This document shows positions 1,950 through 46,673 of a DNA stretch of 64,000 nucleotides, one piece after another. The notes under the pieces are model-generated. The model had not been told where the DNA came from, searched no databases, and saw only the letters and a list, made by a program, of their open reading frames with translations. How positions within the stretch are numbered: position 1 is the stretch's first letter; every line of letters begins with the position of its first letter. The position numbers and the translations under genes are program-made. This DNA is from Alphaproteobacteria bacterium (GTDB lineage: Bacteria; Pseudomonadota; Alphaproteobacteria; VGEJ01), in assembly GCA_965219135.1 (NCBI GenBank), contig CBDCMV010000002.1, forward strand, positions 737,092-801,091, given 5' to 3'.

Positions 1950-3598
<1,649 letters not shown>

Positions 3599-3713
3599 GG
3601 CCCCCTCCCTTGGATGCGACGGCGGCCGCACCTTTTCATGGTCCTGCGCTCGATGTCGAGAGCGCATTCGCCGCGGGCCAGCGCCCCGGCGTGCCCGACC
3701 CCGCTTCGCCGAT

Positions 3714-4346
3714 CTATTTGGTGCCGTAGAGGCGGTCTCCGGCGTCTCCGATACCGGGCACGATGTAGCCGTGGTCGTTGAGCCGCTCGTCCACCGCGGC
3801 GGCGAACAGCGGCACTTCGGGGTGCGCCCCGTGGAAGGCCGCGATGCCCTCGGGCGCGGCCAGCAAGCAAACGAACTTCACCGCGCCGGCGGCGTCCTCC
3901 TTGAGGCGCTGGACCGCGGCCACCGCCGAGTTGCCGGTGGCCAGCATCGGATCGACGACGATCACCTGTCGCTTCTCGAGGTCGGTGGGCACCTTGTAGT
4001 AATACTCCACCGCGACCAGGCTGACCGGATCACGGTAGAGCCCGATATGGCCGACCGGTGCGCTCGGCAGCAGGTCGAGCATGCCATCGAGAATGCCGGT
4101 CCCCGCGCGCAGGATGGAGACGATGCAAAGCTCCTCGCCGCTCAGGACCGGCGCCTTCATCGCGGCGATCGGGGTCTCGATCTCATGCTCGGTTAGCGGC
4201 AGGTCGCGGGTCACCTCGTAGGCCAACAGCAGGCTGATCTCGCGCAGCAACCGCCTGAAGTCGGCGGGCGGGGCGTCCTTGCGGCGCATCAGCGTCAATT
4301 TGTGCTGGACCAGCGGGTGATCGACGATGGTCACGGCTTGCGGCAT
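3714..4346 (-). CDS. upp: Uracil phosphoribosyltransferase
   Basis: 210 aa with the canonical UPRT sequence ([12 protein letters not shown]...[12 protein letters not shown]...[17 protein letters not shown]). TAG stop. Confidence 0.9.
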
Positions 4347-4376
4347 GGAACGATCCTTCCCCGGGCTTGCCTCACA

Positions 4377-5684
4377 CTAGAACACGGTTCCGTCGCTAGC
4401 GACGCGAATGGGTGGCCCGCCCTCCGGTCGGCGCTCAAGGGCGATCCGACGCCCGGCGCGCCAGGTACCGCCCTCCAACACTCGGGCCAACGGAAAGGCG
4501 TGCGCATCAAGCCCCAGACGCTCTCGCACCGCAACCGCCAGCCGGTCCAAAAGAGCCACCGTCAGTGCGCGCCACTCTACGACGACCTCGGAACCCGTGC
4601 CATGTTCCAGCGCCGTGACGGCCTCGTGTTTGGGCCGAAGGACGCCGCTGTCGATCAGTAGTCCGCCGTTTCGGTATTCGGCAAGCCCGGTGAGCGAATC
4701 CAGCCCCGTCACCACCAAGCCGGCCTCGCTCAGCGGCTCCACCAGCGAATAGGTCAACCACTGCGCAAGCTTGTGGAAGGGGACCAGGCCGCGCGTGAGA
4801 CCGTCGCCGCCAATGATCGGGTGCCGCCATACATCGCCCAGATTGGCGCCGGCGATGTCGATCCGACGGGGCCACACCGGACCCAGCGCCTCGTGCACCG
4901 CACCCAGGACGGTCGGCGCCGCAAGTCGGGAATCGCGGGCCTCGCCGGCCAGGTAGTCGAACAGATTGCCGAGCCGCGGCGCGGAGTCTCCGAAAAGACG
5001 GGGCGCGGTTGTCATGGCCTGGCCGAGCCGGCGCAGAAGCCTCGCGCGCTCGGCCAGGCCGACCAACGGATTGTCCTCACCCACCTGAAACGCCGTTCCC
5101 AGCGTTGGCATCTCGATCCGACGCAGCGCCTCGGAATCCGCGCGTAAGCGCGTGTCCGACGCCGACAACGCGCCAGAGGCGTAAAGACGAAGGCTCGCGA
5201 GCGCGAGGCCCTCCGATCGCGCATAGGTTTTACCGGCCTCGCGATAGCGCCACGATTCGCCGGCCCCGGCATCGAGGATTACGCTCACCAGGACGACTTC
5301 GGTGCGAACCCGGGCGATCTCATCGCGCTCGACCTCCGTAAGTCCGGCCGCGATCGTGCCCCAGCGGTCGACGCCGCCGGTGGCGAAATGCCTCCAGCGG
5401 CTGTGGTAAGGGACCTCGAGGTCGGGGTAGGCGGTCTTTACGGTGTCAACGACATAGTCGGCGCAGCTACCCAGGCGCGATTCGTCCAGCGCAAAATGCT
5501 CCAACGCGTCGTGTCCGGCGGTGGCGTACAAATCGCCACAACGTTCGCGCACCGCATCGACCGAGCGCAGCCACGCGATGGCCCCGGCGGCGTCGTGCAA
5601 GTTCGATCCGATTGCCCGTCCAGCGCTAGGCGGCGCCGTCGTAGTAGCCGGCGGCCTTCTTGGCGTCGATTTCCACCCGCGCAT
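4377..5684 (-). CDS. DUF1688-family protein (URC4-like, uracil catabolism-associated). The true start may be the TTG near 5600.
   Basis: 435 aa with the conserved ...VPFHKLAQWLTYSLVEPL... region, co-clustered with a URC1-like cyclohydrolase and upp. Overlaps the URC1-like stop by 26-59 nt depending on start choice. Confidence 0.65.
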   Translation of the reverse strand: MRGWKSTPRRPPATTTAPPSAGRAIGSNLHDAAGAIAWLRSVDAVRERCGDLYATAGHDALEHFALDESRLGSCADYVVDTVKTAYPDLEVPYHSRWRHFATGGVDRWGTIAAGLTEVERDEIARVRTEVVLVSVILDAGAGESWRYREAGKTYARSEGLALASLRLYASGALSASDTRLRADSEALRRIEMPTLGTAFQVGEDNPLVGLAERARLLRRLGQAMTTAPRLFGDSAPRLGNLFDYLAGEARDSRLAAPTVLGAVHEALGPVWPRRIDIAGANLGDVWRHPIIGGDGLTRGLVPFHKLAQWLTYSLVEPLSEAGLVVTGLDSLTGLAEYRNGGLLIDSGVLRPKHEAVTALEHGTGSEVVVEWRALTVALLDRLAVAVRERLGLDAHAFPLARVLEGGTWRAGRRIALERRPEGGPPIRVASDGTVF

Positions 5685-6833
5685 GGGCGGGGACGAGGGC
5701 GTCCGGAATCGGCACCCGCTCGACGATCTCGATGTCCTGGCGGACGATCGCGTCGTGCTTTGAATCGCTCATCGAGACGAAGCGGTCGATGCGGCGAATG
5801 CCGAGCCAGTGCAGGACATCGGGCATCAACTCTTGAAACCGCACGTCCTGAACGCCGGCAATGCACTCGGTGCGCTCGAAGTAGGCCTCGGCGCGATCGC
5901 CGCCAGCCTGTCGCTTGCGCGCGTTATAGACCAGGAACTTGGTCACCTCGCCCAGTGCCCGCCCTTCTTTGCGGTTGTAGACGATCAACCCGGCGCCGCC
6001 CGCCTGCGCCTCGGCAACGCACGCCTCGATACCGTGAACCAAATAGGGGCGGCAGGTGCATATGTCGGAGCCGAATACATCCGAACCGTTGCACTCGTCG
6101 TGGACCCGACAGGTCAGGCGTCGTCCGGGATCGGCGATCGCGGCGACCTCGCCGAAACAGTAAATGGTGATGCCGCCGATTGGCGGCAGGAAGATCTTGA
6201 GATCGGGCCGGGTCACCATTTCGGGGAACATGCCGCCGGTCTCCTCGAACAGCGAGCGGCGCAGGTCGTTCTCTTCGATCGCGCAGCGTCGCGCCACGCC
6301 AGGCAGATACCAGACCGGCTCGATGGCCGCCTTGACGACCCGGGCTTCACCGTTCTCGCCGAGTATTTCGCCGTCGGGCCGAAGCCGTCCGGCGGCGATC
6401 GCCTCCTTGAGTTCGGGCAGATGGATGCGGGCCCGGGCCACCGCGATGGTTGGCGGATGTTCCAACCCTCGGCCAGCCGCTCGCCGAAGACCTCGCTGAC
6501 CAAGTGGCCATAGGGGTCAAGCGAGACGATCTTGTCGACGTCCGCCCATTCGGAATGCGGGCCGATGGCTGCCGCGGGCGCGGTATCGGTGAGATCGGGC
6601 ACGTGCACCCGGTCCAGGCTGCCGGCGGCAACGGCAAGCGCGCGGTAGAGCGCGTAACTGCCGGCATGGGCCCCGATCGCGTTGCGTCGCGCCGGATCGG
6701 TGAGTGAGCCGATGATCGGACCGCGTGCCTCGGGCGTAGCCGCGCCCCACTCCACCGGGGGCGGCTCGTGCGCGCCGGACCGGGGGTGCGAGGTCAGGAC
6801 GATGTGTTTTTGGGGGCTCTTGTGATTGCGCAT
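5626..6833 (-). pseudogene. URC1-like GTP cyclohydrolase II-family protein (N-terminal GTP_CH_N domain plus C-terminal cyclohydrolase II domain), split by a frameshift near 6465-6500
   Basis: C-terminal 279-aa ORF carries the zinc motif CRVHDECNGSDVFGSDICTCRPYL. The N-terminal domain (MRNHKSPQKHIVLTSHP...RNAIGAHAGSYALYRALAVAAG...SEVFGERLAEG) is in the -1 frame upstream (track ORF 6213..6938, start at the ATG at 6833). Confidence 0.65.
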
Positions 6834-6943
6834 GGCGTGCGGCGCCTGGGTTCCCGACCATACAGCGAATCCACCAACCGGTACACCGGACGCCCCGCGC
6901 GCGTGGCGTTGACACCGCCTTTTGCCGGCCCGTAGCATCGCGC

Positions 6944-8419
6944 ATGAATCTCGATTCCAGCGACGAACTCAGGGACCTTCAGGCGTTCGACGACCCCGTG
7001 GCGGCGATCGATCGGGTTACCGAGATCTATGTCGAGGGGCGCGCGCTCCTCAAGGAGCATTTCGACCGCTTTGTCGGCGGAGAGCGGAACGTACCCAAGG
7101 TTGACGCCTGCTATCCCTACCTGCAGCTCAAGGTGGTTTCGGTACCGGCGGGAGGCGCCCGGGGGCCGCTTTCCTACGGCGCCGTCGCCGAACCCGGCGT
7201 CTATGGCACCACGCTCACCGAGCCGGCGCTGTTCCGCAGCTATTACGAGGAACAAGTTCGCCTCCTGATCGGCAGCCACAATGTGCCGGTCCGCGTCGGC
7301 ATCTCGAATCGGCAGATTCCCTTTACCTTCGCCCTGGAGGAATTGACCGCCGACCTCGACGCCGAAGGCGTCGCGCGGCTGCCCGAGGCCTTCCACCTGC
7401 CCGACCTGTCCGAGATCGACGACCGCATCGCCAATGGCGCGCGGCAGAATGGACAGGGCGGCGTCCGCCCGCTCTCGCTCTTTCCCGCCGAGCGCGTGGA
7501 CTATTCGCTATCGCGTCTCCGCCACTACACCGGCACCGCGCCGGACCACTTCCAACGCTTCGTCCTTTTCACCAACTATCAGCGCTACGTCGACGAGTTC
7601 GTCGAGTACGGCCGTGACGCGGTGACCAACGGCGCGGAGTTCCGTGCCTTCGTCGAGCCGGGCAACGCGGTCCGAACCAATGCGCGGCTGACCGACGTGG
7701 CGTCCGGGGGCACGCCGGCCGAGAAACTGCCGCAGATGCCGGCCTATCACTTGGTCAAGGACCGTCACATGGGGGTCAGCCTGATCAACATCGGGATCGG
7801 CCCCTCGAACGCCAAGACCATCACCGACCACGTCGCGGTGCTGCGTCCCCACTGCTGGCTGATGATCGGCCACTGCGGCGGCCTGCGCCGCACCCAGCGG
7901 CTGGGCGATTATGTTCTGGCCCATGCCTACGCGCGGCTCGATCACGTCCTGGACAACGATTTACCGCCCGTGGTTCCCATTCCCGCCATCGCCGAGGTGC
8001 AGGTGACGCTGAGCGACGCGGTCGCGCGAATCACCGGCCTCGAAGGCGCGGAGATGAAGCAGCGCCTGCGCACCGGCACCGTGGTGACCACCGACGACCG
8101 CGACTGGGAGCTTCGCTACGACGAACTCGCTACCTTCTTCAACCAATCGCGCGCCATCGCCATCGACATGGAATCGGCGACCATCGCGACCAACGGCTTT
8201 CGCCTGCGCGTGCCCTACGGCACCCTTCTCTGCGTGTCCGACAAGCCGCTCCACGGCGAGATCAAGCTGCCGGGCATGGCCAACGCGTTCTACCGCGAGC
8301 GGGTAAGCCAGCACCTGAAGATCGGCCTTGCCGCGCTCGACGAGATGCGCGACGACGTCACGCGCCAAGCCCTGCACTCACGCAAGCTCCGAAGTTTCGA
8401 CGAGCCCGCGTTTCGCTGA
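6944..8419 (+). CDS. amn: AMP nucleosidase
   Basis: 491 aa. N-terminal AMN domain plus PNP/UDP phosphorylase fold (GIGPSNAKTITDH...IDMESATIA). Confidence 0.85.
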   Translation: MNLDSSDELRDLQAFDDPVAAIDRVTEIYVEGRALLKEHFDRFVGGERNVPKVDACYPYLQLKVVSVPAGGARGPLSYGAVAEPGVYGTTLTEPALFRSYYEEQVRLLIGSHNVPVRVGISNRQIPFTFALEELTADLDAEGVARLPEAFHLPDLSEIDDRIANGARQNGQGGVRPLSLFPAERVDYSLSRLRHYTGTAPDHFQRFVLFTNYQRYVDEFVEYGRDAVTNGAEFRAFVEPGNAVRTNARLTDVASGGTPAEKLPQMPAYHLVKDRHMGVSLINIGIGPSNAKTITDHVAVLRPHCWLMIGHCGGLRRTQRLGDYVLAHAYARLDHVLDNDLPPVVPIPAIAEVQVTLSDAVARITGLEGAEMKQRLRTGTVVTTDDRDWELRYDELATFFNQSRAIAIDMESATIATNGFRLRVPYGTLLCVSDKPLHGEIKLPGMANAFYRERVSQHLKIGLAALDEMRDDVTRQALHSRKLRSFDEPAFR

Positions 8420-8434
8420 CTCCGGGATCAATCC

Positions 8435-9808
8435 ATGGCCGACACGAGCGAGTTGGCGCACCTGTCCGCGGCCGAACTCGGTCGCCGTCTTACCGCCGGC
8501 GAACTCGATCCCGTGCGCCTTGCCGAGTTCTACCTCGAACGCATCGAGGGTTACGCCGACGATAGCGTGTTCCCGACCGTGACCGCCGAACGCGCCCGCC
8601 GCGAGGCCGGGGCGAGCACCGCGCGCCACCGCGCGGGCCACCCGCTCGGGCCGCTCGACGGCGTGCCCACGGTGTGGAAGGACATCGTCGATGTCGCCGA
8701 CACCGTGACCACGGCGGGCTCCGATTTGTTCCGCGACAATCCGCCCGCGGGAGCCGATGCGCCGGTCGTCGCCAACGCCACCGCCGCCGGCATGGTCAGC
8801 CTCGCCAAGACCACGTTGCCCGAATTCGCATTCTCCGGGCTCGGCCAGAACCCGCATTTTGGAACCCCGCGCAATCCCCACGATCCGACGCGGATGACCG
8901 GCGGCTCGTCGTCGGGCTCGGCGGTGGCGGTGGCGGCGGGCCTCGCGCCCTGTGCGCTGGGCACCGATACCGGCGGCTCGATCCGCATCCCCGCCGCGTT
9001 TTGCGGCATCGTCGGGTTCAAGACCACCGAGCGGCGCATCGACAAGACCGGCGTCGTGCCGCTTTCCCGCACCCTCGATACCCTGGGTCCGCTTGCGCGG
9101 ACGGTCGAGGATTGCGCCCTTCTCGACGCGGTCTATCGTGGCATCGCGCCCTCCGCGATGTCCCCGCCATCGATCGCCGACCTCTCGGTATTGGCGCCGC
9201 CTGCGACAAGCATCGTCATCGCCCAGGCCGAGGACGCGGTGGTCGCCAACTTCGAAGCCGCGCTCGATACGCTGGCCCGCGCCGGGGCTCGCATCGAGCG
9301 CCGGCCCTTCGACATGTTCGAAGCGGTCCATGCCTTGACGCCGAAACGCGGCACCATTCTCGCCGCCGAGTCTTACTATCAGCACAAGGACCGGGTGGAG
9401 GGCGCGGACGCGGCGCGCATCGACCGCCGGGTCATGGCTCGAATCTGGCGCGGCACCGAGATGAGCGCGTGCGACCTGGTCGCCATCGGGGTCGAGCGCG
9501 AGCGGTTGATCGCCGATTTCGAACGCGCCCTCGACGGCGGCCACTTCGTGGCCATGCCGACCGCGCTGATCACCGCGCCTGAGATTGCCGCCATCGAGGC
9601 CGACGATGCGCTCTTTCACGCAACCAACCTGCGGGCGTTGCACAACACGATGATCGGAAATTTCCTGCGCACCTGCGGTCTGGCGCTGCCCTCGGGCCGC
9701 GATTCCGACGGTTTGCCGACCGGCATCCTCTTCACCGGTCCGGCCGGCGCCGACGCCGCGCTGCTGCGCGCCGGCCTCGCCATTCAGCCGGCGCTGGCCG
9801 GCGAGTAG
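8435..9808 (+). CDS. Amidase (amidase-signature family)
   Basis: 457 aa with the [14 protein letters not shown]...[13 protein letters not shown] signature. Confidence 0.85.
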
Positions 9809-9810
9809 TC

Positions 9811-10713
9811 GTGCCCGAGCTTCCCGACGTCGCCGTCTATGTCGCGTGTCTGGAGCCCCGCATCCTCGGCCAGGCGTTGAACGGCGTCCGCGTCGGCAAC
9901 CCCTTCCTGGTGCGTACCGTCGAGCCGCCGCTTGCCTCGGCAGCGGGGCGCCGCGTCCTCGGCCTGCGCCGACTCGGCAAGCGCATCGCCATCGGCCTGG
10001 AGGGCGAACTCCACCTCGTCATCCACCTGATGATCGCCGGGCGCCTGCACTGGAAGGATCCAGGCGCGAGCTTGCCCAAGCGGCGTGGCCTGGCCGCATT
10101 CGACTTCCCGGCCGGCACCCTAACCCTAACCGAAGCGGGATCGAAGCGCCGCGCCTCGCTCCACGTGGTCTCCGGCGAGGCGGGGCTTGCCGCCCTCGAT
10201 CCCGGCGGTGTGGAGGTCCTCGACGTGGACCTCGAAACCTTCGCGCGGGTCCTCACCAATCGCAATCACACGCTCAAGCGGGCGCTCACCGATCCCCACC
10301 TCTTCAGCGGCATCGGCAATGCCTACTCGGACGAGATCCTGCACCGCGCCCGCCTCTCGCCGGTGAAGCTCACCGACAGCATGACCGCCGGCGAGATCGG
10401 CCGCCTCCACGGCGCCGTGCGCACCACCTTGACCGAGTGGACCGCGCGTTTGCGCGCCGAGGTCGGCGAGAACTTCCCCGAAAAGGTCACCGCGCTTCGC
10501 CCCGACATGGCCGTGCACGGACGCTACGGCGAGCCCTGCCCGGACTGCGGGTCGGCGGTCCAACGCATTGTCCACGGGGCGCACGAGACCAACTATTGCG
10601 CGCGCTGCCAGACCGGCGGCAAGCTCTTGGCCGACCGGGCGTTGTCGCGGCTGCTCAAAAAGGACTGGCCGCGCACGCTCGAAGAGCTGGAGAAGATGCG
10701 CCCGCCCCCATAG
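9811..10713 (+). CDS. Fpg/Nei-family DNA glycosylase/AP lyase
   Basis: Starts MPELPDV (catalytic Pro2/Glu3), H2TH, and a C-terminal zinc finger CPDCGSAV...CARCQ. Confidence 0.8.
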
Positions 10714-10763
10714 ACGTCGCGTGCTATGATCGGGGAAATTTGTGCGCTTGCGGGAGGACTCCG

Positions 10764-12284
10764 ATGCCGCCACCTCTGACGATCCGTCTCAACGAGGCCG
10801 ACAACGTCGTCGTCGCCCGCGCCGACCTTCTCGCCGGCGTCGAGATTGACGGCGAATCGGTGAAGTCGAGAGCGCCCATTCCGGCCGGTCACAAAGTGGC
10901 CACCGGTGCCATCGCCGCGGGCGAGCCTGTGCGCAAGTACAACCAGATCATCGGCTTCGCCAGCCAGCCGATCGCGCCCGGCGAGCACGTCCATACCCAT
11001 AACGTCGAGATGAAAGACTTCGACCGCGAGCACGAAATCGGCGTTGACGCCGTCGCCACCGCCCACGTGCCGGAACCGCACCGCGCCAGTTTCGCTGGCA
11101 TCGTGCGCGCCGATGGCCGGGTTGCCACCCGCAACTACATCGGCGTCATCACTACCGTCAATTGCTCGGCCACGGTCGCGCGCCACATCGCCGATCAATT
11201 TCGCGGACCGGCGCTCGATGCCTTCCCCAACGTCGACGGCGTGGTGGCGCTGTGCCACGGCTCCGGCTGCGGCTTGGCCGGCGCCGAGACCGGCGACGCG
11301 ATCGCCCGCACGATCCACGGCTACGCCCGCCACCCCAATTTCGGCGGGGTGCTTCTCCTCGGCCTCGGCTGTGAGGACAACCAGATCAGCAAGATCATCG
11401 ACCGCTACGACATGGAGCCGGGCGAAACGCTGCAGGCGATGACCATCCAAAGTTCCGGCGGCACCAGCGCCACGGTGCGTCAGGGCACCGAATTCATTCG
11501 CGACATGCTGCCGCGGGTGAACGAGGTGCAGCGCGAGCTGGTACCGGCCAGCCACCTTGTGCTCGCCCTGGAATGCGGCGGCTCGGACGGCTACTCCGGA
11601 ATCTCAGCCAACCCAGCCCTGGGCGCGGCGACCGACATCCTGGTGCGCCACGGCGGCACCGCCATCCTCGGCGAGACGCCCGAGATTTATGGCGCCGAGC
11701 ACCTCTTGACCCGGCGCGCGGTAAGCACCGAGGTCGGCGAAAAGCTGACCGGGTTCATCGACTGGTGGGTCGACTACACCGGCCGCAACGGCGGCGAGAT
11801 GAACAACAATCCATCGCCCGGAAACAAAGACGGCGGGCTGACCACGATCCTCGAAAAATCGCTCGGCGCCGCGGCCAAGGGCGGTACCACCAACCTGGTC
11901 GACGTCTACGACTACGCCCAGCTGGTCGAAGCCAATGGCTTCGTGTTCATGAACACGCCGGGCTACGATCCGGTATCGGTCACCGGAATGGTCGCGGGCG
12001 GCGCCAATACGGTCTGCTTCACCACCGGGCGCGGTTCGGTTTTCGGCTGCAAGCCGGTTCCCAGCCTCAAGCTCGCGACCAACAGCGCGGTCTACACCGC
12101 GATGACCGAGGACATGGACATCAACTGTGGCCTGGTGGTGGACGGCGAGGTTACGGTGCCCGAAATGGGTCAGCGCATCTTCGAGACGATTCTCAAGACC
12201 GCTTCCGGCGCCCAAACCAAAAGCGAAGCGCTCGGCTTCGGCGAGGATGAGTTCGCGCCCTGGCACATCGGCGCGGTGATGTAG
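10764..12284 (+). CDS. Altronate/galactarate dehydratase family (UxaA/GarD; SAF N-domain plus D-galactarate dehydratase C-domain)
   Basis: 506 aa from the ATG at 10764 with a GGGAGGA SD. The 812-aa track ORF is an upstream read-through. Confidence 0.8.
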   Translation: MPPPLTIRLNEADNVVVARADLLAGVEIDGESVKSRAPIPAGHKVATGAIAAGEPVRKYNQIIGFASQPIAPGEHVHTHNVEMKDFDREHEIGVDAVATAHVPEPHRASFAGIVRADGRVATRNYIGVITTVNCSATVARHIADQFRGPALDAFPNVDGVVALCHGSGCGLAGAETGDAIARTIHGYARHPNFGGVLLLGLGCEDNQISKIIDRYDMEPGETLQAMTIQSSGGTSATVRQGTEFIRDMLPRVNEVQRELVPASHLVLALECGGSDGYSGISANPALGAATDILVRHGGTAILGETPEIYGAEHLLTRRAVSTEVGEKLTGFIDWWVDYTGRNGGEMNNNPSPGNKDGGLTTILEKSLGAAAKGGTTNLVDVYDYAQLVEANGFVFMNTPGYDPVSVTGMVAGGANTVCFTTGRGSVFGCKPVPSLKLATNSAVYTAMTEDMDINCGLVVDGEVTVPEMGQRIFETILKTASGAQTKSEALGFGEDEFAPWHIGAVM

Positions 12285-12321
12285 CCGGCGGCACTTCGCC
12301 GCTCGGCAGGCCTGACACCCC

Positions 12322-13689
12322 TTGGACCCGACGGCAACCCGCGCGCTCGGGCGCGCCGGAGTGGCGCTGACGCAGCTCGGTTTTGGGAGCGCCCACCTCG
12401 GCGAGATCTACGCGCGATTGCCCGAGGACGATGCCCAGGCGGCGCTCGCCGCCGCACACGAGGGTGGGATCGCCTATTTCGATACCTCGCCATGGTACGG
12501 ACGAGGCCTGAGCGAGCACCGCGTGGGCCACTTCCTGCGCGGCCGGCCGCTCGCGAGTTTCGTCGTCTCGACCAAGGTCGGGCGGGTGCTGTCTCGACCC
12601 TCCAATCCCGATTCCTTCGACACCGGCCCCTGGACCGGCGGACTCCCCTTCGAGATCACCTTCGACTACACCGCCGAGGGCATCACTCGATCGTATGAGG
12701 ACAGCCTGCAGCGGATGGGGCTCACCCGGGTCGACCTGTTGCTGATCCACGACCTCGACATCCGCCACCACAGGCGCGTGGACCAAGTGGTGGCCTACCT
12801 CGATCAGCTCTCCGAGGCCGGCGGGTGGTCGGTGCTCGAGGGCCTGCGGCGGCGGGGCGAGATTGCCGCCATCGGCGCCGGTATCAATGAACTCGGCATG
12901 ATCCCTCGCTTTCTCGAGCGTTTCGAGATCGACTTCTTCCTCGTCGCGATGCCCTATACGCTGTTGGACCAAGATGCGCTGGACGAAGAACTCGCGCGTT
13001 GCGCCGAACGCGGCCTCGGCATTGTCATCGGCGCGCCCTACGCTTCCGGCATCCTCGCCGCGGGCCCGGGAGACGCCACGATGTACCGCTACGAACCCGC
13101 GGGTGACGAGGCGATCGAGAGGGTGGAGCGACTGCGCGCGGTGTGCGAGCGATTCGAGGTCCCGCCCAAAGCGGCGGCGCTACAGTTCCCGCTCGGCCAC
13201 CCCTCCGTCGCTTCCGTGATTCCTGGCGCGGTGTCCGCCGCGATGGGGGCCTGTCTCGACCACATGCGATTCGCCGCGGAAATACTGGCGCGCGAAGTGA
13301 ACGGGGTGTGCGACAATCCGCTGGTGTTCGCCGAGGACCGGGAGATTCTGTCGGGCGGCAACTTTCACGCCCAGCCCGTGGCCATGGCCGCCGATACCCT
13401 GGCGCTCGCCATCGCCGAGACCGGCTCGCTCTCGGAGCGTCGGACCGCGCTTCTCGTCGACCCGCAACTCAGCCAGCTGCCGCCCTTCCTGGTTCGCGAC
13501 AGCGGGCTCAACTCGGGCTGCATGGTCCCCCAAATTACAGCGGCGGCACTGGTCAGCGAGAACAAGGCGCTTGCCCATCCCGTCAGCGTCGATTCGATTT
13601 CCACCTCGGCCAACCAGGAAGACCACGTCAGCATGGCCACCTATGCTGCCCGGCGTCTCGGCGACATGGCGGACAACGCGGCCGCCTAA
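12322..13689 (+). pseudogene. Chimeric ORF: aldo/keto reductase (aa 1 to about 305, C-terminally truncated) fused in frame to an internal fragment of histidine ammonia-lyase (HutH-like, about 145 aa)
   Basis: AKR homology (...[13 protein letters not shown]...[23 protein letters not shown]) ends at about 13240. The ORF continues as ...[36 protein letters not shown]...[16 protein letters not shown]..., which is the C-terminal-half core of HAL/PAL-family lyases, lacking both HAL ends. Confidence 0.6.
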
Positions 13690-13909
13690 GGGGGTCACCG
13701 TCAATTGCGTCGTCCCCGGACTGATCCGCCGCGACTGGCAGGATCGCGACGGCCTCAGCGCCGAGCGCATGCAGAGTTGGCAGGACAAGATCCCGATGGG
13801 ACGCCTCGGCGAGCCCGATGAGGTCGCCGCGGTGGTTGCCTTCTTGGCCTCGGCCGATGCAAGTTACCTCACCGGCCAGCGGGTACACGTCAACGGGGGG
13901 TTCATTTGA
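13690..13909 (+). pseudogene. Short-chain dehydrogenase/reductase, C-terminal fragment only (about 70 aa)
   Basis: GVTVNCVVPGLI...MGRLGEPDEVAAVVAFLASADASYLTGQRVHVNGGFI* is an SDR C-terminus with no upstream Rossmann part. It abuts the HAL fragment and overlaps the next gene's start. Confidence 0.5.
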
Positions 13910-15075
13910 AGATCGTCGCGCTCGAGTGGTTCCGCCTCCATCCCAAGATCATCAAGGAGGCGTGGCAGGACGACGAGTACGTCTGGCCCTCCACGGTCCC
14001 CTCGTTTCTCGTCAAGGTGACTGCGGAGGATGGCACCTACGGCCTCGGCGAGGCATCGAGCCAGGTCTGGTACCTCGGCGAGACTGCCGAGCAGATGGAA
14101 TCCTTCCTGACGCTCTACGATGGCGCGCTCAAGGGCCACGACGCCGACAATATCGGGCGCGCGCACCAGCTGATGGAGGGGGCGGTCGGCGGTGGGATGC
14201 CGGGCGGCCGCGGCGCCCGCGCCGGCGTCGATATGGCGCTTTACGACCTGGTTGGCAAGGCGCGTGGCGTGCCGGTGCACACGCTCCTGGGCGGCGCCTA
14301 CCGAACCGAGATCGAACTCCTGACCAACCTCTATCACAAGACGCCGGAGGAAATGGTCGAGGCGAGCCGCGACTTCGTCGCGCGCGGATTCAAGGGACTG
14401 AAGGTCAAGGTCGGCGACGTGCTCCTGGCCGAGGGCTGGAACCGCGACAATTTCGAAACCGAGCTCGACAAGCTGGTGGCCGCGCTCGCAGTGGTGCCGC
14501 GCGGCGTTTACGTCGATGCCGACGCCAACCAGGGCTGGCGTAGCGCGCAGTGGACGGTAAGCTTGCTGCGGCGCTTCGCGGCGCACGATAATCTCTCGAT
14601 CGAGCAACCCTTGCCCTACGCCGACATCACCGGCGCCGCGTTCGTCCGCCGCCATGCCGGGGTGCCGGTGATCCTCGATGAATCGGTCTATTCCCCCGAA
14701 GCGGTCATGCAACTCATTCGCGCCGAAGCGTGCGACCGCGTTGTGCTCAAGCTCAACCGCGTCGGCGGGCTCATGCCCGGGCTGCAGATCGTCAACATGT
14801 GCGAGGCCGCGGGCGTCGGCGTGAGCGTCGATACCAATCCGTACACCGTCCTTGGCGACACCGCGTCATGCCACATGGCGGCGGTCGCGCCCACCGCCTA
14901 TCCCGTCGATTGCGAGGGCCACGTCTCGTTCCTCACCATCGGCGAGCCCAATCCGTTTCGCGGCGGCATCACCTTCGATGGCGCGCGCGCCAAGTTGCCC
15001 GATGCCCCGGGACTTGGCGTCGACGTCGACTGGGACGCGCTTCGCACCCACCAGACCGCCCACGCGCCGCAATGA
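13906..15075 (+). CDS. Enolase-superfamily enzyme (mandelate racemase/muconate lactonizing enzyme family)
   Basis: 389 aa. MR/MLE N- and C-domains (KVKVGD..., metal-ligand D/E/D pattern). Confidence 0.85.
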   Translation: MKIVALEWFRLHPKIIKEAWQDDEYVWPSTVPSFLVKVTAEDGTYGLGEASSQVWYLGETAEQMESFLTLYDGALKGHDADNIGRAHQLMEGAVGGGMPGGRGARAGVDMALYDLVGKARGVPVHTLLGGAYRTEIELLTNLYHKTPEEMVEASRDFVARGFKGLKVKVGDVLLAEGWNRDNFETELDKLVAALAVVPRGVYVDADANQGWRSAQWTVSLLRRFAAHDNLSIEQPLPYADITGAAFVRRHAGVPVILDESVYSPEAVMQLIRAEACDRVVLKLNRVGGLMPGLQIVNMCEAAGVGVSVDTNPYTVLGDTASCHMAAVAPTAYPVDCEGHVSFLTIGEPNPFRGGITFDGARAKLPDAPGLGVDVDWDALRTHQTAHAPQ

Positions 15076-15111
15076 ACCGGGACCCGGCTTCTCAACAGAA
15101 GGTGACGTGAG

Positions 15112-16340
15112 ATGGGGGATCGTCCCGTCGTCCGGGTCTATCAAGAGGATTGGTGGCCCTTCCAGAACCTTCCCAATGCCCTGCGGCGAATCGAGCAGGA
15201 GACGGGAATCAAGACCGAGCTTAGCTGGGACGTCATCGGTGTCGGCACCATCGATACGATGTTCGACAAGATGACCGCCAGCTTCGCCGACGATGAGCCA
15301 CCCTACGACCTGGTGTGCACCGACGAGATCATGTTGCGACACTATGCTTCCTTGGGTCGTGTTCAGGCGCTGGACGATTTCATCGCCCGGGACAACTGCG
15401 ACATTGGCGCGGTGACGCCGGCCACAATCGAGGTCACCCGTTGGAACGATCAGACGATTGCACTGCCCTGTGTCAACGTAACGAACATGCTGCTGTACCG
15501 CCGTGATCTGTTCGATCGGCATGGCTTTGCGGCTCCCAATACCTTTGCCGAGGTGAGCGGGATCGGCGCCGCGCTGCAAGAAGCGGTGCGGGCCGACGGC
15601 ACGTCCGATTTCTTCGGCTTCGCGACGCGTGGCGCCGACGGCGGCGGACACGCCGTTTGGACGATAGCTTCATGCGGTCCCACGGCGCCCGCTGGTTCGA
15701 TGAATCCGGCAGGCCAGCGGTCCAGACCGACCGGCACCGGCAGGCGCTAACCACCTATGTCGATCTGTTGCATCGCGTGGGACCACCTGAACAGCCGGAC
15801 ATGAGCTTCCCTGAGCTGATGCGCAACTATCGGGCCGGTCGCGTCGCCATGATCCTCGAGGTGGGGATGGAGTACGCGAACCTGCTTCATGATGACCCGG
15901 ACCTTGCGGAACGAACCGGGGTGGCCCTTATTCCCGCCGGCCCGGCGGGGCGATTCTCCAATCTCTACTGCCCGCCCTTCGCCATCCCCGCCCGGTCTCA
16001 GGTCAAGGACGAGGCCTGGGAAGTCGCCAAGTTCCTCTGTTCGCCGGAGCAACTGTTGGCGGACGGCATCGCCGCCAAAGCATTGGAAACCTCGTCACTG
16101 CCCGTTCTGTACTCGCCCGAGTTCGATCGTCACTTCCGCGACGATCTGCTTTCGGTGGCGCGCGCCAGCCGGGCCATTTGCTTCGAGGAACGACCTATTT
16201 CGAGCCTGGGCCTGGATGCATGCGTCGTCGTTGGCGATGCGACGAGTAGCGCCCTGCGCGGAACGCTGACCGTCGATGCCGCGCTGGCCGCCATGCAGAG
16301 CGGTTTGGACGACCTGATGGCGCGGGCGCCGGCGCAGTGA
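15112..16340 (+). pseudogene. ABC transporter solute-binding protein (SBP family 1, sugar type) remnant: no signal peptide and a frameshift at about 15655-15672
   Basis: Two consecutive ORFs (15112..15750 and 15657..16340) together cover an SBP_bac_1 fold (...GGHAVWTIAS / SFMRSHGARWFDESG...). The ORF opens only 7 codons upstream of the first Met, directly after the MR/MLE gene, so no leader can be encoded. Confidence 0.6.
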
Positions 16341-16362
16341 CGCCGATAGAGGAGACGCTATC

Positions 16363-17802
16363 TTGACCGCGCATCCGAACTACATCGCCGGCGAATGGGT
16401 CGATTCGGGCGAGCACGCGAAGAACGTCAATCCTTCCAACCTCGACGACGTGATCGGCGAGTATGCCCAGGCCGACCGCGCCCAGACCGAGCAGGCGATC
16501 GCGGCGGCGCGCGCCGTCTTCGCGGGGTGGTCGGCGACCACGCTGCAGGAGCGATCCGACGTCCTCGACCGCGCCGGCGCCGAGATTCTCGCCCGCCGCG
16601 AGGAACTGGGCCGACTGCTGGCGCGCGAGGAGGGCAAGATCCTTGCCGAGGCGACCCTGGAGGCGGGCCGGGCCGGGCAGGTTTTCAAGTACTTCGCCGG
16701 CGAGACGCTGCGCATTGCCGGCCAACATATGCAATCGGTGCGTCCCGGAATCGACGTCGAGGTGACGCGCGAACCCCTGGGCGTCATCGGAACGATCACG
16801 CCGTGGAATTTCCCGATCGCCATGCCGGCGTGGAAGATCGCGCCGGCGCTCGCCTACGGAAACTGCGTAGTCTTCAAGCCCGCATCGCTGGTTCCGGGCT
16901 CGGCCTGGGCGCTGGCCGAGATTCTGTCGCGCGCCGGGCTGCCGGACGGCGCGTTCAACCTGGTCATGGGCCCGGGCGCCGCGGTCGGCGAGACGATTCT
17001 CGCCAGTCCCGCGGTCGATGGCGTGAGCTTCACCGGCTCGGTCGATACCGGCGATACCGTGCTCAAGACGGTGTCCGGCCGCCACGGCAAGGTCCAGCTC
17101 GAAATGGGCGGTAAGAACCCGCTCGTCGTGCTTGACGATGCCGACCTCGACGTGGCCGTGGCCGCGGCCGTAAACGGCGCCTGTTTTTTGACCGGTCAGC
17201 GCTGTACCGCATCGAGCCGGCTGATCGTCACCGAGCACATCCACGATGCCTTCGTGCAGGAGATGACCGCCAAGGTCGCCGCCCTGAACGTCGGCGACGC
17301 CCTCGAGCCCGGTACCGAAATGGGCCCGGTGGTCGATTCCGCTCAGCTTGACCAGGACCTGTCCTACATCGATATCGGCAGCGCCGAGGGCGCCACCCTC
17401 GCGTGCGGTGGCCAGCGCCTCAACCGCGATCACGACGGCTTCTACCTAGCGCGGGCGCTCTTCACCGCGACCACCAACGACATGCGCATCAATCGCGAGG
17501 AGGTGTTCGGCCCGGTGGCCTCAGTGATCCGCGCCACCGATTACGACCACGCGCTCGAGCTGGCCAACGACACCGACTTCGGCCTGTCCGCGGGCATCTG
17601 CACCGGCTCGCTCAAGAATGCGACGCACTTCAAAAAGAACGCCAAGGCCGGCATGGTGATGGTAAATCTGCCGACCGCGGGGGTCGATTATCACGTTCCT
17701 TTTGGCGGTCGTAAGGGCTCGAGCTATGGCGCCCGCGAGCAGGGCGCCTACGCGGCCGAGTTCTTCACCGTCGTCAAGACAGCCTACACGGCGGCGTTGT
17801 AA
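16363..17802 (+). CDS. NAD(P)-dependent aldehyde dehydrogenase (2,5-dioxovalerate/alpha-ketoglutarate-semialdehyde dehydrogenase-like)
   Basis: 479 aa. ALDH motifs (FTGS...ELGGKNP, catalytic Cys in GQRCTA). Stop overlaps the next start (TAATG). Confidence 0.85.
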   Translation: MTAHPNYIAGEWVDSGEHAKNVNPSNLDDVIGEYAQADRAQTEQAIAAARAVFAGWSATTLQERSDVLDRAGAEILARREELGRLLAREEGKILAEATLEAGRAGQVFKYFAGETLRIAGQHMQSVRPGIDVEVTREPLGVIGTITPWNFPIAMPAWKIAPALAYGNCVVFKPASLVPGSAWALAEILSRAGLPDGAFNLVMGPGAAVGETILASPAVDGVSFTGSVDTGDTVLKTVSGRHGKVQLEMGGKNPLVVLDDADLDVAVAAAVNGACFLTGQRCTASSRLIVTEHIHDAFVQEMTAKVAALNVGDALEPGTEMGPVVDSAQLDQDLSYIDIGSAEGATLACGGQRLNRDHDGFYLARALFTATTNDMRINREEVFGPVASVIRATDYDHALELANDTDFGLSAGICTGSLKNATHFKKNAKAGMVMVNLPTAGVDYHVPFGGRKGSSYGAREQGAYAAEFFTVVKTAYTAAL

Positions 17803-18518
17803 TGGCGCCGACGATCATCGCTGGCGCCTCGGGCTTCGCCTACAAGCCCTGGAAGGGCCCGTTCTATCCCGACGATCTGCCCGATTCCGAGATGCTGACG
17901 TATTACGCCGGCCAGCTCCCAGCGGTCGAGATCAACAACACCTTCTACCGCATGCCCAAGGCCAGCGTCATGGAGGACTGGGCCGCCAAGACCCCGGCGG
18001 CGTTCACCTTCGCCGTGAAGGCCTCGCGCCGGATCACCCATTTCGCCCGTCTCAAGAACGCCGGCGAGCACGTGGACTACTTGTTCGACAACCTCGTCGG
18101 GCTCGGCGATAAGGCGGGTCCGGTGCTCTTCCAGCTGCCGCCCAATTTCAAGAAAGACCTCGATCGGTTGAAGGGATTCCTCGCCATCCTGCCGCCCAAG
18201 CGCCGCGTGACCTTCGAGTTCCGCCATCCCTCGTGGTTCGAAGACGACGTGGTGGCCGCCCTCTCGCAAGCCGGTGCGGCATTGTGCGTCGCTGAGACCA
18301 ACGCCGACGAGAAAAGGCCCGCCATCACCGTCACTGCGGGCTGGGGGTATCTCCGGCTGCGCCGCGAGGGCTATACCAAGGCGAAGCTGCGCGCCTGGGC
18401 CAAGGCGATCGCCAAGCAGCCGTGGTCCGAGGCGTACGTCTTCTTGAAGCACGAAGACAAGGGCATGGCGCCCAAGCTCGCGCGCGAGCTCATGGACGAA
18501 ACGGAAAAGGGAGGCTGA
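17802..18518 (+). CDS. DUF72-family protein (YecE-like)
   Basis: 238 aa, full-length similarity to DUF72. Translationally coupled to the ALDH. Confidence 0.75.
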   Translation: MAPTIIAGASGFAYKPWKGPFYPDDLPDSEMLTYYAGQLPAVEINNTFYRMPKASVMEDWAAKTPAAFTFAVKASRRITHFARLKNAGEHVDYLFDNLVGLGDKAGPVLFQLPPNFKKDLDRLKGFLAILPPKRRVTFEFRHPSWFEDDVVAALSQAGAALCVAETNADEKRPAITVTAGWGYLRLRREGYTKAKLRAWAKAIAKQPWSEAYVFLKHEDKGMAPKLARELMDETEKGG

Positions 18519-18519
18519 G

Positions 18520-18855
18520 ATGAAGCGGCTGGATATATCGACCCGCATGAGCCAGGCGGTGATCCACGGTGATACCATCTACCTGGCGGGCCAGGTCGCC
18601 GAGGGCGCGAGCGTGGGCGAGCAGGCCCAAGGGATCGTCGATAAGATCGACCGCCTCTTGGCCGAAGCCGGGACCGACAAATCAAAGGCGATGTCGGCGC
18701 AGGTTTGGCTCACCGACATCGCCACCTTCGATGAGTTCAACGCGGTTTGGGATGCCTGGGTGACGCCGGGCAGCCCGCCGGCCCGCGCCTGCGTCGAAGC
18801 GACCCTCGCCGCGCCACAGTACCAGGTCGAGGTCATGGTCGTCGCCGCGCTGTAG
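18520..18855 (+). CDS. RidA/YjgF-family enamine/imine deaminase
   Basis: 111 aa, Rid family (…IYLAGQVA…VWLTDIATFDEFNAVW…). Confidence 0.8.
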   Translation: MKRLDISTRMSQAVIHGDTIYLAGQVAEGASVGEQAQGIVDKIDRLLAEAGTDKSKAMSAQVWLTDIATFDEFNAVWDAWVTPGSPPARACVEATLAAPQYQVEVMVVAAL

Positions 18856-18872
18856 CTGCTTCGGGCCACGAC

Positions 18873-19310
18873 GTGGAGGTGTTCACGATCGGCTTCACTA
18901 GAACCTCGGCCGAGAGATTTTTCGGCAGGTTGCAACGCGCCGGGGTGCGAGGCGTGATCGACGTCCGCTTGAACAACACCTCTCAGCTCGCGGGTTTCGC
19001 CAAAGCGCGGGATCTCGAGTTCTTTCTCAAGGCCGTCGGCGACATCGAGTACTCTCACGAGCCGCTGCTCGCGCCGAGCCGGGCGATCTTCGAGGTCTAC
19101 AAGAGGCTCAGGGGAAGCTAGGCCGAATTCGAGCGCCGGTTTCTTGGCCTAATGGAGGCGCGCGAGATCAAGCGCCGGCTGGACCCGAGTCTCTTCGATC
19201 GAGCCTGTCTGTTGTGCAGCGAGGACAGGCCCCACTACTGTCATCGCCGGCTGGTCGCGGAGTATCTAGCCAAGCGGTGGGACGCACCAGTCCGTATCGC
19301 GCATCTCTAG
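18873..19310 (+). pseudogene. DUF488-family protein interrupted by an in-frame TAG (19119-19121) at the conserved Trp position
   Basis: GTG start, FTIGFTRTSAERFF...VIDVR..., then TAG, then the same frame continues AEFERRFLGLME...ACLLCSEDRPHYCHRRLVAEYL (DUF488 C-terminal CHR motif). The family consensus at the stop is ...S-W-EEFE..., so this is TGG to TAG. Confidence 0.6.
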
Positions 19311-19844: not shown

Positions 19845-21131
19845 GGGCACCTCTAAGAATTCTCCTTTTTCGGGCGTCGTCGATTTAGAATCGGGTTGCC
19901 GATTTGTTGATAGCGGGAGGCGTGGTTGATGGGTCAGATGGGGTTTTTCGATCTTGGGAACCGGTATTCCGGTCTTGACGCCAAGAACGAGCCGCTTTTG
20001 AAGATCGACGGGGTGGTTCCGTGGGAAGACTTGCGCGCGCGTCTTGAGGCGGTGTGGCGGCGTGCGGACAAGGCGCGTAAATCGCGGGCGGGACGCAAGC
20101 CGTGGGATGCGATTGTGATGTTCAAGACGATCATTCTGTGCGCGCTCTACAATCTCTCGGACGACCAAGTTGAGCATCAGATCCGTGACCGCCTGTCGTT
20201 CATGCGATTTCTGGGGTTGGGTCTGGAGGGCCGGGTTCCCGACGCCAAGACGGTGTGGCTGTACCGCGAACAGTTAACGCAAGCTGGCGTGATCGAGGCC
20301 TTATTCGAGACGTTCGATGGCTACCTGAAGGATCAGGGCTATCTGGCGATGGGCGGCCAGATCATCGACGCCTCGATTGTGGCGGTACCCAAACAGCGCA
20401 ACAGCCGCGAGGAGAACGCGCGGATAAAGGCGGGCGAGACGCCGGCAGGCTGGGAGGACAAGCCGGCAAAGCGGCGCCAAAAGGATGTCGAGGCGCGGTG
20501 GACTAAGAAGCACGGCAAGAGCCATTACGGTTACAAGAACCATGTCAACGTGGACCGTCGGCACAAGCTGGTGCGGCGCTATCATGTGAGCGACGCGGCG
20601 GAGCACGACAGCCAAGTCCTCGACGATATCCTGGATGGGGACAACACGGCTTTGGGTGTGTGGGCGGACAGCGCTTACCGCTCGGCGGAGATCGAGGCGG
20701 TGCTGAAGGAGAAGGGGTTGCGGAGCCGGATCCATCGCAAGGGCCGCCGCAACAAGCCGCTGAGCGAGCGCGAGAAGCAGGGCAACAAGACCCGTTCGTC
20801 GGTTCGGGTCCGCGTCGAGCATGTCTTCGGGGCCCAGAGCAACGACATGGGCGGGACGCTGGTGCGTAGTGTCGGGCTGGTGCGGGCGAAGGCGCGGATC
20901 GGGTTGAAGAACCTCGCCTACAACATGCGCCGCCTGGTCCAACTGGAGCGTCTCGCGGCGGCCGTGTGACGATACTCGGAGAAGGAGACCGCCTGGGGAC
21001 GGTCTTGTGGCGGAAATAACTCAATTGGAGCGTGGAAGACCCCGAAAATCTCGGCTCCGGCATGGCTGGAGCTGGTGACAGCCTGGTTAAACAATATCCT
21101 CCGACAACTCACCAATTCTTAGAGGTGCCCC
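19845..21131 (+). mobile_element. IS5-family insertion sequence (about 1.29 kb) with 16-17-bp terminal inverted repeats and a 5-6-bp target-site duplication
   Basis: IRL GGGCACCTCTAAGAATT at 19845-19861 and IRR AATTCTTAGAGGTGCCC(C) at 21114-21131. Flanking direct repeat CCAATG/CAATG on both sides. Single DDE transposase ORF inside. Confidence 0.8.
19926..20969 (+). CDS. IS5-family DDE transposase
   Basis: 347 aa (TTG start) with the typical IS5/IS1031-group sequence (...IIDASIVAVPKQRNSREEN...WADSAYRSAEIEAVL...). Confidence 0.9.
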   Translation: MMGQMGFFDLGNRYSGLDAKNEPLLKIDGVVPWEDLRARLEAVWRRADKARKSRAGRKPWDAIVMFKTIILCALYNLSDDQVEHQIRDRLSFMRFLGLGLEGRVPDAKTVWLYREQLTQAGVIEALFETFDGYLKDQGYLAMGGQIIDASIVAVPKQRNSREENARIKAGETPAGWEDKPAKRRQKDVEARWTKKHGKSHYGYKNHVNVDRRHKLVRRYHVSDAAEHDSQVLDDILDGDNTALGVWADSAYRSAEIEAVLKEKGLRSRIHRKGRRNKPLSEREKQGNKTRSSVRVRVEHVFGAQSNDMGGTLVRSVGLVRAKARIGLKNLAYNMRRLVQLERLAAAV

Positions 21132-45701: not shown

Positions 45702-46673
45702 ATGTCGAAACCGCAGTCGCTAAGACTCGTGGCCGACGTCGGGGCGACCAACGTCCGATTCGGCCTGTGCGCCGCGGATGGACCTCTATGCGCCCGCGAC
45801 TCCTTCGCTTGTGCCGACTTCGACGGCATCGAATCGGCGGCCCGCGCGTTCCTCGATCGGGCAGATTCGCGGGCTCGGCCGGATCAAGGCTTCCTTGCCG
45901 TGGCCGGGCCGGTCACCGGCGACACGGTTTCGCTGACCAACCACGCGTGGCGGTTCTCGCTCGACGATCTGACCGTTGCGCTGGGACTGAAGCGCATGGT
46001 CGTCGTCAACGATTTCACCGCCGTCGCGCTGTCCCTGCCGCATCTCGGGCCGGACGGCCTGCGCCGGATCGGGGCGGGATCGCCGATCGCGGAAACGCCC
46101 ATGGCGGTCATTGGGCCGGGAACGGGGCTCGGCGTGTCCGCCCTGATCCCGGCCGCAAAGTCGTGGATTCCGATCGCCGGCGAGGGCGGCCATCGTGACT
46201 TCGCCGCAAGCGGCGAGGACGAGCTAGCGCTGCTCCGATACCTGCAGGCGCGCCACGATCACGTCTCGCTTGAACGTGTTCTGTCGGGGGCCGGCCTCGT
46301 CGCCTGTTTTCTCGCGTTCGGCGGGAGCGACGATACCGCGCCCAGTCCGGCAAGCATCGCCGCCGCCGCCGCCGGCGGCGATGCGAACGCCAGTGCCGCC
46401 GTCGGTCTATTCGCCGAGGTCTTGGGCGCGGCCGCCGGCGACCTCGCGTTGACGCTGGGCGCCCGCGGCGGCGTATTCGTGGCCGGCGGCATCGTGCCCA
46501 AGCTGGGCGCCGCCTTCGATTCGGATCGCTTCCGCCGGCGCTTCGAGGCCAAGGGACGGTTTCGCAACTACCTTGCCGAGATTCCCACCTACGTCATCAC
46601 CGCCGAGGTCCCGGCCCTCGTCGGTCTCGCCCACTATTCCCCGCCCGACACGGCGACAGCGAAAGGACAATGA
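45702..46673 (+). CDS. glk: Glucokinase
   Basis: 323 aa from MSKPQSLRLVADVGATNVRFGL (ROK/Glk family). Confidence 0.85.
   Translation: MSKPQSLRLVADVGATNVRFGLCAADGPLCARDSFACADFDGIESAARAFLDRADSRARPDQGFLAVAGPVTGDTVSLTNHAWRFSLDDLTVALGLKRMVVVNDFTAVALSLPHLGPDGLRRIGAGSPIAETPMAVIGPGTGLGVSALIPAAKSWIPIAGEGGHRDFAASGEDELALLRYLQARHDHVSLERVLSGAGLVACFLAFGGSDDTAPSPASIAAAAAGGDANASAAVGLFAEVLGAAAGDLALTLGARGGVFVAGGIVPKLGAAFDSDRFRRRFEAKGRFRNYLAEIPTYVITAEVPALVGLAHYSPPDTATAKGQ

Follow-up and report, generated by a model that had tools for sequence, protein, structure and literature searches.

A deletional bias of bacterial genomes was reportedly set out by Mira, Ochman and Moran in 2001. This bias and the erosion of bacterial pseudogenes are the subject of Kuo and Ochman 2010 (PMC2916853) and Kuo and Ochman 2009 (PMC2817411), and they provide the closest described counterpart of the locus analysed here, a run of three abutting gene pieces within a 64-kb stretch of DNA from a soil alphaproteobacterium (the window, by which we mean the whole stretch). 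In this locus, an aldo-keto reductase (AKR) gene passes in frame into an internal fragment of the histidine ammonia-lyase (HAL) gene hutH, which is directly followed by the 3' end of a short-chain dehydrogenase/reductase (SDR) gene. We conclude that the region is very probably a composite pseudogene scar, left in a catabolic gene cluster when two deletions, independent of each other, took away the greater part of five adjacent genes. With the erosion of pseudogenes by deletional bias (PMC2916853, PMC2817411) it shares piecemeal deletion, young and strain-specific pseudogenes and abutting remnants, as well as mixed lesions (deletion, insertion of an insertion sequence (IS), small frameshifts) in one dispensable cluster. 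There is no essential difference; less common is that a sister assembly keeps an intermediate state, so that the order of events can be read directly.

Other known systems resemble the locus in part. Breakpoints poor in microhomology are typical of illegitimate recombination, and the 1-base and 0-3-base junctions found here are like those of illegitimate deletion by Ku/LigD end joining or replication slippage. The classical IS-adjacent deletion differs, since the IS1595-family element lies inside the segment of the sister assembly that was deleted in the window; neither breakpoint is at an IS1595 end, and this route was rejected. 'Rosetta stone' gene fusions likewise join unrelated coding sequences in frame into one open reading frame (ORF) with two Pfam domains, but here both partners are cut within their folds, the join occurs in one strain, and there is no sign of selection. 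As for the hut genes, intact hutH and hutF of relatives pass the NCBIfam equivalog cutoffs; they differ from known hut genes in that the pair of this clade has no hutU or hutI nearby and lies inside a cluster of AKR, lactonase-like, SDR, MR/MLE and aldehyde dehydrogenase genes. The scar is a case of ordinary, known pseudogene erosion and not a new kind of protein.

The chimeric reading frame and its pieces

The features of the region, with positions in the window, are as follows.

12322-13689, plus strand: chimeric ORF of 455 aa with a TTG start
12322-13242, plus strand: AKR remnant, codons 1-307 of a 341-codon aldo-keto reductase gene (PF00248 match)
13243-13686, plus strand: internal hutH fragment, codons 290-437 of about 512-516 (TIGR01225 match)
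13688-13909, plus strand: SDR 3' remnant, the last 73 codons and the stop (adh_short_C2 match)
13643-13909, plus strand: incidental 88-aa ORF (P0121), which begins out of frame in the hutH remnant and crosses junction 2 into the SDR tail
13243-13244, unstranded: junction 1, a window-specific, in-frame deletion of 4,348 bp relative to the sister assembly
13685-13689, unstranded: junction 2, an older deletion of about 763 bp that is shared with the sister assembly

A sequence-only reading of this DNA had described a 455-aa ORF leading in frame from AKR to HAL, and the ORF listing bears this out together with the Pfam and NCBIfam matches. Aldo_ket_red covers residues 19-305 of the chimera (profile positions 2-263 of 291, E=1e-36) and Lyase_aromatic (PF00221) residues 306-453 (278-429 of 466, E=3e-60), so that the domain check of residues 306-455, named in that reading as a possible refutation, returned HAL. 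The change from one gene to the other, placed by it at about 13240, was approximately right, the exact site being 13243/13244, where AKR codons 1-307 meet hutH codons 290-437. The AKR is of the L-galactose / D-threo-aldose dehydrogenase-like type, and its remnant is 100% identical to the intact 341-aa protein P0001 across the common part. That the HAL core lacks both the N-terminus, which forms the methylidene-imidazolone (MIO) group, and the C-terminus had been recognised correctly: the NCBIfam hutH model TIGR01225 is matched at positions 285-432 of 506 only, with 228 bits against a full-length equivalog cutoff of 539.15 bits. hutH is reduced to 148 internal codons, which are collinear with 9269-9712 of the relative L001 and 15271-15713 of the sister assembly L081.

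The SDR piece had been said to follow straight after the stop of the chimera, and it does so in a different frame. This tail (13688-13906, 73 residues) matches the C-terminal end only of SDR models (PF13561/PF00106; adh_short_C2 positions 163-235 of 236, E=2e-19) and aligns to L001 10485-10706 and to intact 252-aa orthologues. Its own stop and the TTG start at which the MR/MLE gene begins overlap each other, as they also do in intact relatives. The AKR, hutH and SDR pieces abut without intergenic DNA, as the same reading had stated, and their Pfam and NCBIfam matches are far beyond chance. The 88-aa ORF is gene-called in both assemblies, on contigs of 569 kb and 1.03 Mb. GC content and composition are continuous over both joins. 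We found no other HAL-like copy in the window, where the only other SDR is a distant paralogue of the remnant, and no local donor for the HAL piece in the form of a second HAL or an IS1595 copy. Scans of both strands across the scar for RNA families, promoters, terminators and repeats yielded nothing meaningful.

Two deletions of different age

A search of 5.8-billion sequences with the whole chimera returned P0001, the intact 341-residue AKR, which is encoded on the contig L081 (ENA ERZ25067264, 569 kb). Positions 2323-13243 of the window correspond to L081 1-10922 with 99.94% identity and positions 13243-18994 to L081 15271-21026 with 99.79% identity. Over about 21.6 kb, 21 single-nucleotide polymorphisms (SNPs) and two small indels separate the two sequences, which thus are independent assemblies of distinct strains. 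L081 holds an intact AKR gene and 4,348 bp that are absent from the window. Its hutH already stops at codon 437 (437 aa) and is followed by the SDR tail with the 88-aa SDR-fragment ORF. The 4,348-bp segment comprises the 3' end of the otherwise intact AKR gene and the first 289 codons of the truncated hutH. It is orthologous to outgroup sequence and collinear with L001 at 79-84% identity, like its flanks. The polarity, deletion and not insertion, is set by the outgroups, and the breakpoints were mapped to the base.

The deletion at junction 1 spans AKR codon 308 to hutH codon 289 and joins ...GCCGCGA/ACGTT... of L081 to ...CAGGTC/ATGGGG... (slashes mark the breaks). The microhomology is 1 nt (A at 13243), the flanks are without similarity, and the breakpoint is also seen against L001. 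Junction 2, likewise visible against L001, measures 763 bp against the relatives L082 and L086; here hutH lost its 3' end (about 75-79 codons) and the SDR gene about 179 codons at its 5' end, the microhomology of 0-3 nt is not resolvable further, and the TAA stop at 13687-13689 is formed by the junction itself. No repeats or IS ends flanking the breakpoints were found. Given that junction 2 is shared with L081 and junction 1 is confined to the window, they are two separate events, of which junction 2 is the older one.

The course of events began before the split from L081 with the deletion of ~763 bp. It brought hutH codon 437 and SDR codon ~180 together in different frames, gave rise to the TAA stop at their junction and inactivated hutH as well as the SDR gene. 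In the window lineage only, the 4,348-bp deletion then joined AKR codon 307 to hutH codon 290 by an illegitimate route, non-homologous end joining or a replication slip. This second step removed the AKR 3' end, the lactonase-like gene, hutF, the 5' part of hutH and, if already there, the IS1595 copy. That junction 1 is in frame is most simply explained by chance, with a prior of 1 in 3, and the outcome is the 455-codon ORF which gene finders call as a protein.

The segment that was deleted later is already mostly dead in L081, where hutF carries the IS1595 element and the lactonase-like gene is frameshifted. The frameshift in the latter, an Amidohydro_2 gene (L081 11600-11680), is due to an extra 8-bp unit, (CATGCCGG)x3 where relatives have two copies, and the threefold repeat forms a 24-nt palindrome. 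The IS1595-family element in hutF has terminal inverted repeats and an 8-bp target duplication (TCCTCGAA), and this copy is without counterpart anywhere in the 64-kb window.

The ancestral cluster in relatives

When species-representative genomes were scanned with the AKR part, a single close relative emerged, the uncultured alphaproteobacterium L001 (79% identity at the protein level). It carries, in this order, Fpg, a garD-like dehydratase gene, AKR, an amidohydrolase gene of 453 codons, hutH, SDR and MR/MLE, with AKR, hutH and SDR intact. The window aligns to it in three collinear blocks, with L001 6923-9268 and 9713-10484 absent. Further relatives (L082-L086) were found via the protein search, and the fullest cluster is that of L086: garD-like (506 codons), AKR (341), Amidohydro_2 (343, with weak likeness to L-fucono-1,5-lactonase), Amidohydro_1 (422), HAL (516), SDR (252), MR/MLE (387) and aldehyde dehydrogenase (479), then DUF72. 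Its HAL passes the hutH equivalog cutoff (677 vs 539 bits) and its Amidohydro_1 that for hutF (499 vs 413 bits, NCBIfam). Intact orthologues occur at the same position with collinear flanks in L001, L082-L086 and the sister L081. The ancestral order, which relatives retain, was garD-like, AKR, lactonase-like Amidohydro_2, hutF, hutH, SDR, MR/MLE and onward. hutF and hutH are thus genuine hut genes, yet resident members of the cluster in this narrow clade.

The intact genes of L001 and L086, and L081 with junction 2 but without junction 1, confirm the successive deletions that the sequence-only reading had suspected. Its suggestion that a hut locus had collapsed into a uronate/aldarate cluster holds for the deletions and fails for the separate locus, since hutF-hutH is resident in every close relative examined. 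It had also counted hutU among the genes possibly lost; none was involved, and what was lost or damaged is the AKR 3' end, the lactonase-like Amidohydro_2 gene, hutF, hutH and the SDR gene.

In the clusters with hutF and hutH (L086 8001-16247; L001 5980-11872; L082 8001-15858), hutU and hutI are not nearby. The pair is co-clustered with the garD-like dehydratase, the L-galactose-dehydrogenase-like AKR, the lactonase-like amidohydrolase, the SDR and MR/MLE, and further with a 2,5-dioxovalerate-dehydrogenase-like Aldedh, DUF72 and RidA; the pathway logic of the hut association is unexplained. L082-L085 carry a separate hutF pseudogene (about 10074-10957 in L082), in which residues roughly 194-283 are deleted and the frame changes, while hutH and SDR are intact in this lineage. 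This independent deletion indicates that the hut pair was hit by loss repeatedly in the clade. In L084 (12504-15685) and L085 (8524-11342), which belong to the P0002 lineage, SDR and MR/MLE are called as one ORF of 639 and 518 aa, respectively, and a forward-strand gene call is absent over the aldehyde dehydrogenase region. These fused calls may be further lesions of the cluster or assembly errors.

The SDR of the clade has a peculiarity of its own. In the intact orthologues (P0123 / L086 12893-13651), HMMER aligns NF-SLS-AASK to the NY---xASK of FabG structures, which places a Phe at the usual catalytic Tyr position together with a 3-residue insertion, and L001 shares both. Possibly the SDR that was lost was a non-canonical enzyme.

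Divergence and selection

Against L001, pairwise ratios of nonsynonymous to synonymous substitution rates (dN/dS) lie at 0.07-0.17 in the three remnants, as compared with 0.08-0.15 in intact neighbours; dS is about 0.3-0.9. A lineage-specific count with three outgroups gave no excess of amino-acid changes in hutH on the L081/window branch. From the low dN/dS and the missing hutH excess it follows that both deletions are young relative to the divergence from other species. Neither analysis gave a signal of relaxed selection on the remnants, which we take as a mark of recent lesions and not of function.

Between the strains, 11 of the 14 classified SNPs (window 2323-23905 vs L081/L088) are nonsynonymous and 13 are transitions. 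Such a nonsynonymous share lies close to the one under neutrality and is often seen between very close strains. The hutH remnant holds three of the 14 in 444 of 16,672 bp (expected 0.37, P about 0.006). Two of them, F382C (13520) and P409S (13600), are window-derived and nonsynonymous at sites conserved in all relatives, and the third is derived in L081. This is the pattern that neutral drift would produce if the sequence were dead in both strains. All three SNPs of the aldehyde dehydrogenase gene (16824, 17300, 17536) alter the protein.

Alternative explanations

Several points weigh against a composite pseudogene scar. Junction 2 is supported by two assemblies, but junction 1 by one assembly only, and it had no match in exact scans of JGI metagenome contigs for both junctions; since the JGI collection probably lacks this ENA-derived population, the negative scan says little. 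The IS1595 insertion and the 8-bp duplication, which lie in DNA that the window has lost, may or may not predate the split from L081. In itself the low dN/dS of the remnants does not mark them as pseudogenes and shows recency only. Finally, we infer the loss of function from missing parts, and the AKR catalytic motifs are still present.

It is improbable that junction 1 is artificial and stems from the reads or their assembly, for instance from a chimeric long read or a mis-join, with a true genome that is L081-like and has an intact AKR and a 437-codon hutH. The single assembly, the absence from the JGI contigs and from L081, and a 1-bp homopolymer difference at 6451 (G3 to G2) that could be a sequencing error would fit such an artefact. 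However, the two sides of the junction stem from one locus, where they have the same orientation and a distance of 4.3 kb, and the 1 nt shared between them means that an overlap or de Bruijn/k-mer assembler cannot create the join. The assembly is also not noisy, as small indels are rare (2 in about 21.6 kb); the cluster shows other, independently derived changes on the window contig (the 4-bp deletion described below, F382C and P409S), and junction 2 is independently confirmed in L081.

We see a slim chance that the 4.35-kb deletion was no neutral clean-up and was favoured by selection for removing an IS1595-disrupted and frameshifted stretch that kept the downstream genes (MR/MLE, transporter, aldehyde dehydrogenase) from being expressed, or else that the chimera is a newborn two-domain protein with residual or new activity. 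If either were true, the strain pair would be a before/after snapshot of operon repair or of the birth of a protein.

That the chimera is already a functional new AKR-HAL fusion protein, retained since its frame is preserved, is very unlikely. The ORF does lie in an operon-like array in which it would be co-transcribed, it is gene-called as P0139, and the AKR part keeps its catalytic Asp/Tyr/Lys/His motifs (fDTSpwYg, sTKvg and lliHD align with solved L-galactose dehydrogenases). But the AKR remnant lacks the last 34 residues, falls short of a full-length PF00248 barrel match (2-263 of 291) and breaks off in the middle of the conserved G-x-x-S-x-x-x-V/L-x-E-N after strand beta-8, where VIPGAVSAA is kept and hutH sequence follows; the deleted NVRENL aligns to vkqvgEN in the PDB alignment of 8scc. 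This segment of AKRs has a role in cofactor binding. The HAL fragment is without the MIO-forming Ala-Ser-Gly region and without the C-terminus, the GASGDLAPL of L001 hutH falling in the part deleted from the window. The SDR remnant starts at KGVTVN, which in the 252-aa orthologue comes after the ...AASKAG segment, and has neither the Rossmann glycine motif nor the catalytic Ser / Tyr-x-x-x-Lys region. With these conserved parts missing, the product of the chimera, if made, should be without AKR, HAL or SDR activity.

The distribution of the fusion also argues against a functional protein. In the search of the 5.8-billion sequences, no protein spanned both halves, with a coverage of <=74% in the AKR only, and no other AKR-HAL fusion occurs among the database matches. 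The sequence-only reading had named a conserved fusion in relatives as a refutation of its view, and none carries one: the sole 455-aa record, P0139, is identical to the window ORF and lies on the window's own 1,033,643-bp NCBI/ENA contig. The fusion is thus found in a single strain whose 99.9%-identical sister is without it, and an in-frame join has a 1-in-3 chance anyway. Moreover, the HAL part took up its two nonsynonymous changes at conserved sites since the split, and the stop codon of the chimera is an accident of junction 2.

A single complex rearrangement, for example by replication template switching, that deleted everything from AKR to SDR and spared an internal piece of 444 bp can practically be dismissed. 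Two breakpoints with little microhomology do lie within 450 bp of each other, but L081 has junction 2 without junction 1, so that the junctions arose at different times, and a 4.3-kb segment re-acquired by L081 would differ from its flanks in divergence, which it does not (79-84% to L001). Equally negligible is the insertion of a foreign HAL fragment between AKR and SDR by horizontal transfer or a mobile element: hutF-hutH beside sugar-acid genes is indeed unusual, being found only in L001 among 80 species-representative loci with a related AKR, but full-length hutH sits at exactly this position in all close relatives, and the fragment aligns collinearly with them, shows the identity that its flanks also have, is continuous in composition across the joins and lacks flanking repeats or mobile-element ends.

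Neighbouring genes and further observations

The genes next to the composite scar are the following.

10764-12284, plus strand: garD/UxaA-family dehydratase-like gene, 506 aa, intact, below the NCBIfam galactarate dehydratase cutoff
13906-15075, plus strand: MR/MLE (enolase-superfamily) gene, 389 aa, intact, with Pfam MR_MLE_N and MR_MLE_C
15112-16340, plus strand: solute-binding protein gene (SBP_bac_1/8), broken by a 4-bp deletion after 15665

The surrounding genes had been taken to be intact, which is the case for the garD-like gene and for MR/MLE, whose product is identical in the sister strain, and not for the solute-binding protein gene, which the sequence-only reading had not mentioned and which is frameshifted. 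The latter encodes 410 aa and is intact in L081 and L001, where the deleted bases are CTCA; its halves are recorded as P0140 and P0142 (212 and 179 aa) on the source contig of the window. This 4-bp deletion is the third lesion of the cluster. The scar, together with this transporter frameshift, fits relaxed selection on the cluster and its deletional erosion.

At 6451, a run of three Gs in L081 is one base shorter in the window (GGG to GG). This 1-bp deletion falls in a gene of the GTP_CH_N / GTP cyclohydrolase II-like kind, on the minus strand at about 5626-6833, and represents a genuine frameshift or else a sequencing error in the homopolymer. The gene adjoins DUF1688 and UPRTase genes in a trio resembling a URC-type pyrimidine-degradation set. 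An IS-type transposase gene (DDE_Tnp_1/DUF772, about 346 aa) at 19926-20969 is found at the same place in the sister strain. A paralogous Amidohydro_2 gene at 46670-47575 has about 68% nucleotide identity to parts of the deleted lactonase-like gene and might compensate for its loss.

Significance

For annotation, P0139, the 88-aa ORF and the 212- and 179-aa transporter halves should be flagged as pseudogene fragments, which prevents the spread of P0139 as a novel "AKR-HAL fusion". Taken together, the window and L081 document, resolved to the base and in its order, the dismantling of a dispensable bacterial gene cluster by an IS insertion, an 8-bp tandem duplication and deletions of 763 bp, 4.3 kb and 4 bp. 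The example illustrates known principles and challenges none of them.

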